From Candidatus Multivorans sp. (GTDB lineage Bacteria > Acidobacteriota > Thermoanaerobaculia > Multivoradales > Multivoraceae): a DNA stretch of 64,000 nucleotides. Location: assembly GCA_965220845.1 (NCBI GenBank), contig CBDCRA010000004.1:603708-667707 (forward strand), read 5' to 3'. The translations under genes and the position numbers were made by a program. Positions 49,799 through 56,223 of this stretch are shown here, piece after piece; position 1 is the first letter of the stretch; each line of letters starts with the position of its first letter. Under the pieces are notes generated by a model, which ran no database searches, was not told the DNA's origin, and saw nothing but the letters and a program-made list of their open reading frames with translations.

Positions 49799-50983
49799 TC
49801 AGGCGGCGAGCGAGTCCAAGGCCTGCAGCACGAGCACGGCCGCAGCCTCGACCTGTTCCTTGGTCGTGAACCGGCCAAAGCTGAACCTGATGGACTCATC
49901 GCAAGCCTCCCCTGTGAGGCGGAGAGCTCGAAGTACATGCGATGGCTCGGGAATGCCGGAAGCACAAGCCGCACCGGTCGACGCCGCGAGGCGAGGTTGC
50001 AGAACGGCGAGCACGTCCCGGGCGTCGAAACCGTGAAACCGGAGGTTCGCGTTGCCCGGATGGCCCCCCAAGGCGGGGCCGTTCGATGAGAGCCGGTAAT
50101 CGCTACCGCGGAGGAGCGCAACGAAGCGGTCCCTGAGCCTTCGGAGCCGCTTACGCTCCTCCGCAGCACCGGTGCCGGAGAGGAGAACAGCCGCAGCCCC
50201 GAAGCCGGCACAGAGAGCCAATGGCACGGTGCCGGACCGGAGCCCGTCCTGCTGCCCGCCACCGTAGATGAGGGGCTCAACGGCAGCCTGAAGGTCGCGG
50301 CGCACGAACAGCGCACCAACCCCCTGAGGACCGTACATCTTGTGACCAGAGAGGCTGATCAAGTCCGCTTGTACCGCCAAATCGCCAAGCCGCATGCCGC
50401 AGGGCGCCTGCGCCGCATCGCAGTGAAGGGGTATGCCGCGAGCACGAAGGACGGCCGCCAAGCCCCGCAGGTCCTGAATCGTCCCGACCTCGTTGTTCAC
50501 CGCCATGACGGATGCGACGAGCACATCATCGCCAAGCCGCGATTCCAAGTCCTCGGGAACGACACGACCCTCCCGGTCCACGGGAATGGCCTCCACGACA
50601 AAGTCGCTCCTCGCGGCAAGTGCCCGGGTCGCGGCGAGGACGCACTTGTGCTCAATGGCACTGACGAGAATGCGCTTCCGAGCCGGCGGAGCTCGCCGCG
50701 CCAAGCCGAACAAGGCGAGATTGTTGGCCTCGGTAGCGCCAGACGTGAAAACGATCTCGTCGGCCTCGGCGCCGATCAAGCCCGCAATCGAATCCGCGGC
50801 CTCTTCTACAGCCTGCGCAGCCCGCCACCCGACGGCGTGGTCGCTCGAGTGCGGATTGCCGAAGGCCTCGTTCCAGTATGGGGCCATCCGCTCCACGACA
50901 CGAGGATCGACAGGGGTCGTCGCCTGATAGTCGGCGTAGATGATCTCGCCGTCGCGCATGCCGTAGCCGGCTGGACGGGGCAT
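49799..50983 (-). CDS. sspA: cysteine desulfurase (IscS/NifS-like; SspA/DndA-type)
   Basis: PLP-Lys motif SLSGHKMYGPQGVGALFVR and C-terminal catalytic Cys region TGAACASG. About 394 aa. Adjacent to the DUF4007/ATPase/PAPS-reductase trio. Confidence 0.8.
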   Translation of the reverse strand: MPRPAGYGMRDGEIIYADYQATTPVDPRVVERMAPYWNEAFGNPHSSDHAVGWRAAQAVEEAADSIAGLIGAEADEIVFTSGATEANNLALFGLARRAPPARKRILVSAIEHKCVLAATRALAARSDFVVEAIPVDREGRVVPEDLESRLGDDVLVASVMAVNNEVGTIQDLRGLAAVLRARGIPLHCDAAQAPCGMRLGDLAVQADLISLSGHKMYGPQGVGALFVRRDLQAAVEPLIYGGGQQDGLRSGTVPLALCAGFGAAAVLLSGTGAAEERKRLRRLRDRFVALLRGSDYRLSSNGPALGGHPGNANLRFHGFDARDVLAVLQPRLAASTGAACASGIPEPSHVLRALRLTGEACDESIRFSFGRFTTKEQVEAAAVLVLQALDSLAA

Positions 50984-51056
50984 CCAGCGGCGACCTTGAC
51001 GCTAGCAACCGGATGGCCTACTGTCGAACTGGACGTAGCGTCCAGATCGCAGACCG

Positions 51057-52013
51057 ATGCTTCGAGGCCCTCTATACAAAGACGGATACCGGCCCAAGCT
51101 CTCAGGGCATGAGACCTTCCCGCTCCGCTACGGATGGCTCAAGAAGGCGTTCGACGCGGTGTCGACCGGCGGTGAGCCGGCCGGGGACAAGTCCGTATTC
51201 AAGGCGGAGGACGCGATCGCGCGCTTCGGAGTCGGGCGGAACATGGTGGCATCGATGCGGCATTGGGCCGTCTCCGCCGGCGTAATCGAGGAGAAAAGCG
51301 GCACGCCCTCACCTACCGAACTCGGGAAACGCCTGTTCGCCGACGACGACGGCCTTGACCCCTACATGGAGGTCCCGGCGACAACATGGCTCATCCATTG
51401 GCGCCTTTGCGGCAACGCTGACAACACGACTTGGTTCTGGGCCTTCAGCCACTACCCTGCCCCGACCTTCGAGCGCGATGCGCTGGTCCGAGGAATCGTG
51501 AAGCTCAAGGAAGACCGGCAATGGCCGCGAGCCGCAGCAACCACCATCGGCAACGACGTCAAGTGCTTCGTGCGCAGCTACGTGCGACGACCCACCTCGG
51601 CCAAGGCGAGCTATGAGGACGCGCTGGAATCGCCGCTGACGGAACTCGGCCTGATCCGGTCCGCCGGAAGACGCGACGGCTTCCGCTTTGTGCGCGGTCA
51701 GAAGCCAACGCTCGGAGCAGGCGTGTTCGCCTTGGCCGTGACCGAGTTCTGGGACTCACAGTCCACTGCCACGACCCTGCCCTTCGAGGCTCTCGCCCAC
51801 GAGCCGGGGTCGCCCGGCAGGGTGTTCCTCCTAGACGAAGACGCGCTCGCAGACCGGCTCCTGGGAATGGCGGAGGACACCGGGGGCGTGTACCGGTGGT
51901 CCGAGACCGCGGGCCTGAAGCAGTTGATCCGCAGCCACGCCGTGGGCGAGGCCGAAGCGCTCGACTTCATCGCGCAGGACTACTCGCGGCCCGACCATAA
52001 GGAGGCTGCCTAG
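51057..52013 (+). CDS. sspB: DUF4007-like protein (SspB-like)
   Basis: N-terminal SGHETFPLRYGWLKK block recalled as the DUF4007 hallmark. Size ~318 aa. Context with cysteine desulfurase, large ATPase and PAPS-reductase-like genes. Confidence 0.55.
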   Translation: MLRGPLYKDGYRPKLSGHETFPLRYGWLKKAFDAVSTGGEPAGDKSVFKAEDAIARFGVGRNMVASMRHWAVSAGVIEEKSGTPSPTELGKRLFADDDGLDPYMEVPATTWLIHWRLCGNADNTTWFWAFSHYPAPTFERDALVRGIVKLKEDRQWPRAAATTIGNDVKCFVRSYVRRPTSAKASYEDALESPLTELGLIRSAGRRDGFRFVRGQKPTLGAGVFALAVTEFWDSQSTATTLPFEALAHEPGSPGRVFLLDEDALADRLLGMAEDTGGVYRWSETAGLKQLIRSHAVGEAEALDFIAQDYSRPDHKEAA

Positions 52014-55000: not shown

Positions 55001-55384
55001 GCCAGCCTAGCAGTCAACAAGCCACCGCAAACCTGGGTCGATCCCGACATCGACCGCGCCACTGTCGAGGTCGCAGCCATGGCCCAGCGCTTCCTCCGTG
55101 CCGAGACCTTCGCCCGCGTCAAGGGCCGTGCCGACAAACGGCACTCGATGGCCGTTATCGTGGGGCTCGAAGGCGCTCCGACCACCGTGCATGACGAGTT
55201 CGCGGTAGGAGACCTCGACCGGCCAGAGGTCGAATCCCTAGCTTCAAGGTTCGAAACCATCCTGACCGAGGCCGGAGACGACCGCCGCAATGTTGTGCTT
55301 GCAGCACTCGCCGAAGTCAGCGCGCGCTATCTGGCCGCCGGGGCAGCCGCCGACTCCGATGACACGGAGGCGGCCGCGTCATGA
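52013..55384 (+). CDS. sspC: large P-loop NTPase (SspC-like; BrxC/DUF499-like architecture possible)
   Basis: Walker A GPYGTGKSS near the N-terminus and Walker B-like LFVFVDEMGKF. 1123 aa. GTG start overlaps the sspB stop and the stop overlaps the next ATG (ATGA). Confidence 0.55.
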   Translation: MALEETVHVARRYQRAINIDSDMGDASALEGFICPRSSAEALETMAHHVATTGQGAFTWTGPYGTGKSSLAVVLGAALNGAKRHRNEAGSLLGQATFDALTNAFPAGTRGWQVLPVSGRRDAPARVIGEAIEASGWLPPDSWTETRVLDALEEIATQHPRASGGLFVFVDEMGKFLEAAAHDGSDIHLFQQLAERASRSHGRLIVVGILHQGFAEYAHRLSRDARDEWAKIQGRFVDLPINTAGEEQIELLGRAIENGRRPQRPSKLAAQVAQLSRRTSAALAERLEDCWPLHPIVACLLGPLSRRRFGQNQRSLFAFLNSAEPLGFQDFLHTAGEDELFTPDRLWDYLRANLEPSILVSPDSHRWGLASYALGRSEAMGCDELEQRLLKVTALLDLLKESSGLTASKELLGLALPEHGAKEIATALENLRNHSLIVFRKFSDAWAIFEGSDFDIDRELEAQSLDPSALDFRVLRTSTELDHVVAKRHYHQTGALRWFDVAVLPLEELGQAAADFSPQQGAIGAFLLGIPTQGESEQEARALCRDAAAPSGDWDILAGFSPSAWGIRDLARELTALERVRDETPELQGDRVARGEVQARIAAVEQSLEGEITRMFDSAFWYREGAQPVQLSRADMSALASDLADARFRDAPRLHNELLGRAKPSSNAVAAQNALLRRMVLNEGETRLGIEGFPAEAGLFVSLLSATGLYRNSEDGWRFMPPEPNHLDTHNLAPAWQAARTFLASNAHRAVPVSEIQAIWHQPPFGIKDGLLPVLALAFLLSHHSELAFYRERVFRTRITELDLDFLVRDAADIQFRWMDLGGVSRQLLAGLADVVRDLDAGNALAYLEPIDVARGLVAIYDRLPPWTGRTQRLSRNARDVRHLFRQAKDPNRLLFDDMPELLKEPLADAEEDAATRIAERVRQGLSELIEAWPAMLGRLREVLLSELQVPNSSPAMLGELRGRAENIRELGGDHRLEAFIVRLSRFEATDGDIEGLASLAVNKPPQTWVDPDIDRATVEVAAMAQRFLRAETFARVKGRADKRHSMAVIVGLEGAPTTVHDEFAVGDLDRPEVESLASRFETILTEAGDDRRNVVLAALAEVSARYLAAGAAADSDDTEAAAS

Positions 55385-56223
55385 CCAACGAACGGACTGA
55401 ATGGCACGTCCTGGGCCTCTCGGGCGGTCGTGACAGCGCTGCCTTGGCCGTACACATGCGCCAGAACCACCCAGACCTCGACATCGACTACTTCTTCACC
55501 GACACGGGCAAAGAACTTCCCGAGGTCTACGAGTTCCTCAATCGGCTGGAGGGTTTCCTGGGGAAGCCGATTCTCCGGCTCAACCCCGACCGCGACTTCG
55601 ATTTCTGGCTCAAGCGCTACAACGACTTCCTGCCGTCGGCACAGAGCCGCTGGTGCACACGCATGCTCAAGCTCCGCCCCTTCGAGCAGTGGATTCGGCC
55701 CGCTCTCGACGAGGGAACCCTCGTCTTCACCTATGTCGCAATCCGGGCGGACGAGGAGTACCGCGAGGGCTACTCTTCCCGACACGACAACCTAAGGGTC
55801 CGCCTGCCCTTGAAAGATGCAGGAGTCAACAAGGAGGGCGTCCTAGACCTCCTGTACGGCGCTGGCCTAGGCCTTCCCGACTACTACGAGTGGCGCACTC
55901 GCAGCGGTTGTACGTTCTGCTTCTTCCAACAGAAGATCGAGTGGGTTCGGCTCAAGGAGCGCCATCCGGAGGCATTCGAGGAGGCTAAGGCCTACGAGAA
56001 GACCGCCGTAGAGCATGGGTCACCATTTACCTGGAGCCAGGGCGAGTCCTTGATCGAACTTGAGCGACCGGAACGTGTCGAGCAAATCCGACACGATCAT
56101 CGGGAGCGACTCGCGCGGTTGCGAGCGAAGCTAGAGCCCAACCCACTGCGGCCGGATGTCGAGGTGCTGGATATCGACGACCTGTATGGCCAAGCGAAGA
56201 CCTGCCTAGCGTGTCACAAGTAG
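55381..56223 (+). CDS. sspD: PAPS-reductase-family PP-loop ATP pyrophosphatase (SspD/DndC-like)
   Basis: PP-loop VLGLSGGRDSAALA (SGGxDS) and C-terminal Cys pair CTFC...CLAC. 280 aa. Confidence 0.72.
   Translation: MTNERTEWHVLGLSGGRDSAALAVHMRQNHPDLDIDYFFTDTGKELPEVYEFLNRLEGFLGKPILRLNPDRDFDFWLKRYNDFLPSAQSRWCTRMLKLRPFEQWIRPALDEGTLVFTYVAIRADEEYREGYSSRHDNLRVRLPLKDAGVNKEGVLDLLYGAGLGLPDYYEWRTRSGCTFCFFQQKIEWVRLKERHPEAFEEAKAYEKTAVEHGSPFTWSQGESLIELERPERVEQIRHDHRERLARLRAKLEPNPLRPDVEVLDIDDLYGQAKTCLACHK

Follow-up and report, generated by a model that had tools for sequence, protein, structure and literature searches.

A window of 64,000 nucleotides (nt) from Candidatus Multivorans sp. (contig CBDCRA010000004.1) was analysed, and its four genes at 49799-56223, namely sspA, sspB, sspC and sspD, very probably constitute a canonical SspABCD module for DNA phosphorothioation, located in an island of lower guanine-plus-cytosine (GC) content within a high-GC genome. 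The identification is carried by several lines of evidence taken directly from the comparisons, which include the family membership of the four proteins, their intact catalytic motifs, their conserved lengths and the synteny of their genes. The closest relatives belong to metagenome-assembled genomes (MAGs) of Thermoanaerobaculia and Acidobacteriota. An earlier reading of this DNA, referred to here as the initial annotation, had already named the four genes; open reading frames (ORFs) exist exactly where it placed them, and its gene identities are borne out by strong full-length PADLOC and Pfam matches for SspA to SspD. Its further proposal that the proportions of the proteins define a separate Ssp subtype has not survived the comparison.

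Family assignment and catalytic motifs

Each of the four proteins is recognised by the profile of its own family. SspA matched Pfam Aminotran_5 with 253 bits and the PADLOC models of SspA and DndA with 402 and 390 bits, respectively. SspB was matched by Pfam DUF4007 (282 bits) and by PADLOC SspB (344 bits), and it is related to the solved SspB structures 6JUF and 6LB9 (E=5e-33). The PADLOC SspC model PDLC02780 was covered almost from end to end, with residues 3-1051 of the window protein on positions 1-1044 of 1045 (1260 bits). The same protein gave 373 bits with the PADLOC BrxC model over residues 161-1027, in agreement with the BrxC-like nature proposed for it in the initial annotation, and a weak match to Pfam AAA_16. 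Similarly, residues 9-280 of SspD aligned with positions 2-277 of the 277 in the PADLOC SspD model (441 bits), and a Pfam PAPS_reduct match is consistent with its earlier description as a protein of the PP-loop/PAPS-reductase type; the rival PADLOC profiles BrxP and DndC reached 40 and 19.7 bits. Judged by these profile scores, all four family assignments are far beyond chance. Among known structures, a sequence search of the PDB found no relative of SspC, and the only relative of SspD was a chain named 'PptA', for which a literature search turned up no paper.

The residues expected to act in catalysis are retained. The N-terminal Walker A motif GPYGTGKSS, which the initial annotation had correctly pointed out in the 1123-residue ATPase, occupies SspC residues 61-69, and its G61, G64, G66, K67 and S68 are invariant in 82 aligned sequences; a candidate Walker B motif, VFVDEMGKF, is also present in the translation. 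The SGGRDS PP-loop of SspD is invariant along with five cysteines (C92, C177, C180, C275 and C278) in 81 sequences, and so are the lysine K215 that binds pyridoxal phosphate (PLP) and the catalytic C340 of SspA in 79 homologues. Across 79-82 aligned homologues, positions that are at least 97% identical number 142 of 280 in SspD, 230 of 1123 in SspC and 73 of 318 in SspB. In loci of many phyla, SspD is 73-90% identical to the window protein, and SspB and SspC of the same loci are 52-89% identical. Such conservation of SspD is unusually high for a mobile defence gene.

Some observations weigh against the identification as a working Ssp system. No Ssp-specific NCBIfam model scored above its cut-off, and hence the Ssp naming rests on PADLOC, Pfam and the PDB. 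PADLOC gave no match to SspE, SspF, SspG or SspH among the 20 neighbouring ORFs, and since neither SspE nor SspFGH is present, a defence role would depend on an uncharacterised partner. Moreover, phosphorothioate chemistry and the target motif are not readable from the sequence.

The way in which the module would act can be proposed by homology with the Vibrio, E. coli and Streptomyces systems, from which its chemistry, target motif and defence role are taken. SspA would draw sulfur from L-cysteine as a persulfide, and SspD, as a PP-loop ATP pyrophosphatase, would adenylate or otherwise activate the backbone phosphate and insert the sulfur. SspB, a DUF4007 protein with multiple winged helix-turn-helix domains, is expected to recognise, bind and nick the target site, while the BrxC-like P-loop ATPase SspC may provide ATP-driven engagement or scanning of the DNA. 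The outcome would be phosphorothioates on one strand of the host DNA, by which a linked effector would recognise it as self. The Ssp systems studied so far mark 5'-CpsCA-3' on a single strand (PMC8092258, PMC9646914).

Gene lengths and arrangement

The initial annotation regarded the ATPase as unusually long and the PP-loop protein as short. Both lengths turned out to be typical when they were set against the best 120 database homologues of each protein, the PADLOC models and the proteins of E. coli 042, which were used as the benchmark in place of the Vibrio FF75 proteins. The SspC homologues measure 1083-1141 amino acids (aa) and the SspD homologues 270-293 aa. There are 13 PADLOC models for SspC, spanning 828-1123 positions, of which 12 lie at 1011-1123; the sole SspD model has 277 positions. 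In the RefSeq annotation of E. coli 042, the DUF4007 protein has 296 aa, the ATPase 1110 aa and the PAPS-reductase protein 279 aa, and the PAPS-reductase protein of the Mesorhizobium plasmid pOM4 has 277 aa.

The same picture emerged from genomic loci, of which 80 were fetched with SspC as the anchor. They represent Acidobacteriota, Alpha-, Beta- and Gammaproteobacteria, Binatia, Chloroflexota, Thermodesulfobacteriota, Latescibacterota and other groups, and the nearest of them is that of a Thermoanaerobaculia MAG (87% identity). ORFs were reconstructed in 82 loci, namely these 80 along with E. coli 042 and a Mesorhizobium plasmid. SspC ranged from 1109 to 1138 aa (median 1130), and SspD, recovered as an ORF in 80 of the 82, from 275 to 300 aa (median 279); the medians of SspB and SspA were 319 and 395 aa. 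Homologues therefore share the lengths of the window proteins, an outcome which by the reasoning of the initial annotation itself leaves nothing unusual.

The arrangement of the genes was read correctly in the initial annotation and is likewise shared. The sspBCD genes are contiguous and co-directional on the plus strand and divergent from sspA on the minus strand. Their tight coupling through GTG and ATG starts was confirmed: the sspB stop TAG (52011-52013) has one base in common with the sspC start GTG (52013-52015), which is preceded by AAGGAGG 8 nt upstream, and the ATGA at 55381-55384 comprises the sspC stop and the sspD start, giving overlaps of 1 nt (B-C) and 4 nt (C-D). Of the 82 loci, 63 share the 1-nt B-C overlap and 44 the 4-nt C-D overlap. 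All 79 loci having sspA carry it on the opposite strand, directly upstream of sspB. Its placement varies in remoter Ssp clades; for example, sspA is not next to sspBCD in E. coli 042, it follows a phospholipase D (PLD) gene in Trichormus, and it is co-directional in Pleomorphomonas. As compared across these loci, the gene lengths, the overlaps and the divergent position of sspA belong to the conserved layout of the clade and are no peculiarity of the window. In five related loci, L013, L028 and L048 (about 13370-14570) as well as L019 and L063, sspC and sspD lie ~1.0-1.2 kb apart, with what is presumably an inserted gene in between.

Table 1. Positions of the ssp genes, of the elements in the sspA-sspB spacer and of the neighbouring operon in the 64,000-nt window
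Feature	Position	Strand	Description
sspA	49799-50983	minus	ORF of 394 aa; class-V PLP cysteine desulfurase; probable extent 49799-50959, 386 aa
sspB	51057-52013	plus	318 aa; DUF4007 protein
sspC	52013-55384	plus	1123 aa, GTG start; P-loop ATPase homologous to BrxC
sspD	55381-56223	plus	280 aa; PP-loop/PAPS-reductase-family sulfur-insertion enzyme
Distal palindrome CTGGACGGGGCATCCAG	50971-50987		CTGGA-N7-TCCAG; 11 nt before the probable start codon of sspA
Putative sspB promoter	50996-51024	plus	TTGACG (50996-51001), 17 nt, TACTGT (51019-51024); read from sequence
Proximal palindrome CTGGACGTAGCGTCCAG	51029-51045		CTGGA-N7-TCCAG; operator-like
SF2 helicase (ResIII + Helicase_C)	47958-49580	minus	first gene of the operon; Pfam ResIII 71 bits, Helicase_C 52 bits
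MORC-type GHKL ATPase (HATPase_c_3)	46033-47961	minus	642 aa from probable start M30; Pfam HATPase_c_3 72.5 bits
PLD/HKD-family putative nuclease	45107-46030	minus	last gene of the operon; PADLOC DrmC 33 bits, ZacB 31 bits

The spacer between sspA and sspB

The start of sspA determines the extent of the spacer. The upstream ATG (50983-50981) falls inside a conserved palindrome and is not preserved in L001, the closest relative, which retains the second ATG (50959-50957, MRDGEIIYADY); all SspA profile matches start at residue 15-16 of the long ORF. On these grounds the true start is probably the second ATG, yielding a protein of 386 aa, and the divergent spacer would therefore be 97 bp.

Two palindromes of the form CTGGA-N7-TCCAG flank promoter-like elements in this region. 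Reading towards sspB, CTGGACGGGGCATCCAG is followed by 8 nt, TTGACG, 17 nt, TACTGT, CGAA, CTGGACGTAGCGTCCAG, 11 nt and the sspB ATG (51057), and thus the proximal palindrome starts 4 nt past the -10-like hexamer and ends 11 nt before the start codon. TTGACG and TACTGT form a putative sspB promoter. A strict scan of 49500-51200 for sigma-70 consensus promoters and terminators found nothing, and for this reason the promoter is offered as a reading of the sequence; boxes with the consensus TTGACC...TAcaGT recur across loci at a fixed distance before the proximal palindrome. A possible extended -10 element for sspA is TGCTAGCGT on the minus strand (consensus TGCTATGGT), which overlaps the -35 element of sspB.

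The palindrome was surveyed in 86 loci. A perfect CTGGA-N7-TCCAG occurs within ~60 nt upstream of sspB, mostly at 22-34 nt, in 61 of the 86 loci, a count that rises to 68 with one mismatch allowed, and the proximal copy is also present in the distant Mesorhizobium system. In 28 loci, a second copy precedes the proximal one by 56-60 nt. The distal palindrome of the window is kept in L001 and L003 and has one half-site change in L002. Of only 87 perfect copies in 1.92 Mb of fetched loci, ~82 lie in the sspA-sspB spacer.

An RNA hairpin is disfavoured as the explanation of the palindromes. Their half-sites do not vary, but pairing of the inner positions is seen in only 21, 47 and 15 of the 61 loci, and this lack of consistent pairing favours a dimeric protein operator. 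The palindromes look like an operator for a repressor encoded by the system itself, and the binding protein is probably system-encoded because the palindrome travels with the system across phyla. The obvious candidate is SspB, since it is the subunit that binds DNA. CCA, the known Ssp target, is present in each half-site, on each strand. A protein of the system, most plausibly SspB, could bind the palindromes, and autoregulation of this kind would parallel the control of dnd by DndB. A literature search found no paper on the control of Ssp promoters.

The helicase-GHKL-PLD operon

Downstream of sspA lies a triad of genes encoding a superfamily 2 (SF2) helicase, a MORC-type GHKL ATPase and a PLD/HKD-family putative nuclease (Table 1). 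The helicase translation contains the motifs GAGKT, DEAH and QMVGRAIR, and that of the PLD protein contains HAKLYFAGD...GSAN; homologues of the latter are annotated as 'phospholipase D family protein' next to sspBCD. The GHKL protein was matched by NCBIfam MzaB with 72 bits over the N-terminal domain only. Its probable start is M30 (47961), so placed that start codon and helicase stop overlap as ATGA, and in 12 of the 13 plasmid matches the alignment with the homologue begins at residue 29-41. In the initial annotation, sspA was taken to head this operon. That arrangement is not established, as a gap of 218 nt separates sspA from the helicase gene and the triad lies elsewhere in most of the related loci.

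The association of the triad with Ssp appears different depending on the gene that serves as the anchor. Starting from sspC, the triad occurs in 17 of the 80 loci, where it may lie behind sspA, downstream of sspD or upstream. Starting from the GHKL gene, sspBCD adjoins in all nine loci inspected among 13 plasmid matches and on all five metagenome contigs with a full-length relative; the metagenome scan used a single GHKL query, and it returned mostly unrelated GHKL N-terminal domains and only these five full-length relatives. The GHKL-linked loci include Ssp clades in which SspC is only 22-28% identical, and the relative orientations vary. Overall, the triad accompanies sspBCD in Acidobacteriota, Proteobacteria, Cyanobacteria, Bacteroidota and Chloroflexi.

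Restriction operons composed of an SF2 helicase, a paraMORC protein and an HKD protein have been known since 2008, and Nitrococcus mobilis is one of the species then illustrated (Iyer, Abhiman and Aravind, PMC2292703). The Nitrococcus mobilis locus in the present set (L014) has the triad beside sspABCD. A literature search found no paper linking such operons to Ssp. The window triad is likewise made up of an SF2 helicase, a GHKL ATPase and a putative HKD/PLD nuclease, and it differs from those operons and from PbeABCD in being paired with Ssp and not with Dnd or a methylase.

Two known effectors were considered for the triad and rejected, and the triad is not SspE either. It is not SspFGH, as there were no PADLOC matches to SspF, SspG or SspH; besides, SspF carries no more than a Walker A motif, and SspH resembles FtsK (PMC8092258). 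Nor is it PbeABCD, in which PbeA joins HKD and SF2 helicase domains in a single protein and acts with phosphorothioate modification (PMC6459918). The triad consists of three separate proteins, with a GHKL ATPase instead of the CxC ABC ATPase PbeC, and the PADLOC match of PbeA to the window helicase (65 bits) covers the helicase core only.

From its gene neighbourhoods, the triad can credibly be proposed as one of the 'missing' Ssp effectors. A broader proposal, that it represents a third phosphorothioate-dependent Ssp effector class beside SspE and SspFGH and that the sspA and sspBCD promoters are autoregulated via the two CTGGA-N7-TCCAG operators, is put forward tentatively, as a possibility that deserves serious weight. 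On the whole unlikely is a solitary module that serves epigenetic phosphorothioation only, has no restriction partner and merely shares its island with the triad as an independent defence system. Such solitude would not be exceptional, given that ~84% of sspBCD clusters are without SspE or SspFGH (PMC8092258), and it would fit the absence of the triad within 10 kb in 63 of the 80 sspC-anchored loci as well as the gap between sspA and the helicase gene. It fits poorly with the finding that sspBCD adjoins every one of the 14 full-length GHKL homologues examined, on 9 plasmids and 5 metagenome contigs, a pairing that is kept in spite of the divergence of SspC and the varied orientations.

Other GHKL-type genes were seen near Ssp genes. 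In E. coli 042 (L081, 9987-14218), a 794-aa 'sensor histidine kinase' of the GHKL type and a 614-aa hypothetical protein are encoded convergent to sspD, and this gene pair sits beside an integrase and a tRNA-Leu. In two metagenome contigs (L110 and L111, about 500-1500), the stretch just ahead of sspB gave a partial GHKL match.

Relation to known phosphorothioation systems

Characterised SspABCD systems include those of Vibrio cyclitrophicus FF75, E. coli 3234/A and Streptomyces yokosukanensis (PMC8092258, PMC9646914). The window locus has the same four protein families and the same B-C-D order, its SspB is homologous to the solved SspB 6JUF, and its proportions match those of E. coli 042, to which SspC is 38% and SspD 70% identical. 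It differs in its partner, which is neither SspE nor SspFGH, and in the adjacent, divergent sspA, as against none adjacent in E. coli 042.

The likeness to DndABCDE is limited to a DndA-like cysteine desulfurase (390 bits) and to the use of a PP-loop enzyme of the PAPS-reductase family for sulfur insertion into the backbone. DndC scores only 16-20 bits in the window, and PADLOC and NCBIfam profile searches gave no match to DndE or to the ABC/SMC-like DndD, which in Ssp are replaced by SspB and SspC, respectively (PMC10853773). In Ssp, SspC is a BrxC homologue or ORC-Cdc6-type ATPase in place of DndD, and SspD is a compact PAPS-reductase protein (PMC12914056, PMC12839542, PMC10853773). Hence, a BrxC-like SspC and an SspD smaller than DndC separate Ssp from Dnd generally and are no mark of a subtype.

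This distinction bears on the suggestion of the initial annotation that the proportions of the proteins may define a separate subtype. A distinct Ssp subtype marked by an unusually long BrxC-like ATPase, an unusually short PP-loop protein and the divergent position of sspA is very improbable. The sizes and architecture are indeed far from those of DndD and DndC (PADLOC DndC models have 468-481 positions), and the 13 PADLOC models attest to the diversity of SspC families. The benchmark, DndC and DndD, belongs to another system, and in size the proteins agree with the SspC and SspD profiles, with hundreds of homologues, with E. coli 042 and with plasmid systems; the divergent sspA, too, is found throughout the clade (79/79 loci). 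Among 1.84 billion cluster representatives (50% clustering), the best-scoring full-length proteins of the SspD type have ~270-310 aa, and a remoter group of ~440-525 aa aligned to SspD residues 8-210 only.

The last alternative, a type 4 BREX system, which is made up of BrxP, BrxC, PglZ and BrxL and also makes phosphorothioates, is suggested by the BrxC and BrxP matches of SspC (373 bits) and SspD (40 bits) and by the published homology of BrxC with SspC (PMC12914056), and it can be dismissed almost entirely, as the Ssp models score 3-10 times higher, DUF4007 and PAPS reductase are separate proteins and not fused as in BrxP (in effect an SspD-SspB fusion; PMC12914056), and neither PglZ nor BrxL was matched among the 20 neighbouring ORFs.

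Island context

The canonical SspABCD module and the triad share a stretch of lower GC, which is 0.60-0.66 over ~44-62 kb against 0.67-0.73 elsewhere in the window. This suggests that 44000-62000 is a horizontally acquired defence island. A tRNA, an integrase and recognisable border genes were sought for this island and none was found.

Convergent to sspD, the minus strand at 56360-58327 encodes a 415-aa DUF262/GmrSD_N protein (57080-58327) and an upstream-overlapping ORF of 238 aa, which are both kept only in the closest relative L001. The 415-aa protein has a DGKQR motif, and its best PADLOC match is NsnA. It was considered as an SspE, a protein of about 770 aa that combines DUF262 with HNH, and rejected, being without an HNH domain, a match to the SspE profile or a PDB match.

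Implications

The core of the locus is an ordinary Ssp module, and what merits further work is confined to the operator-like palindromes and the recurrent triad. The module nevertheless provides a calibration point for the family, in which an SspC of ~1100 aa, an SspD of ~280 aa and a divergent sspA are what is normally found in a very widespread clade. The recurrent triad, together with the conserved operator, could explain part of the effector gap seen in ~84% of the clusters (PMC8092258), and the conserved operator could show how the expression of the modification genes is controlled.

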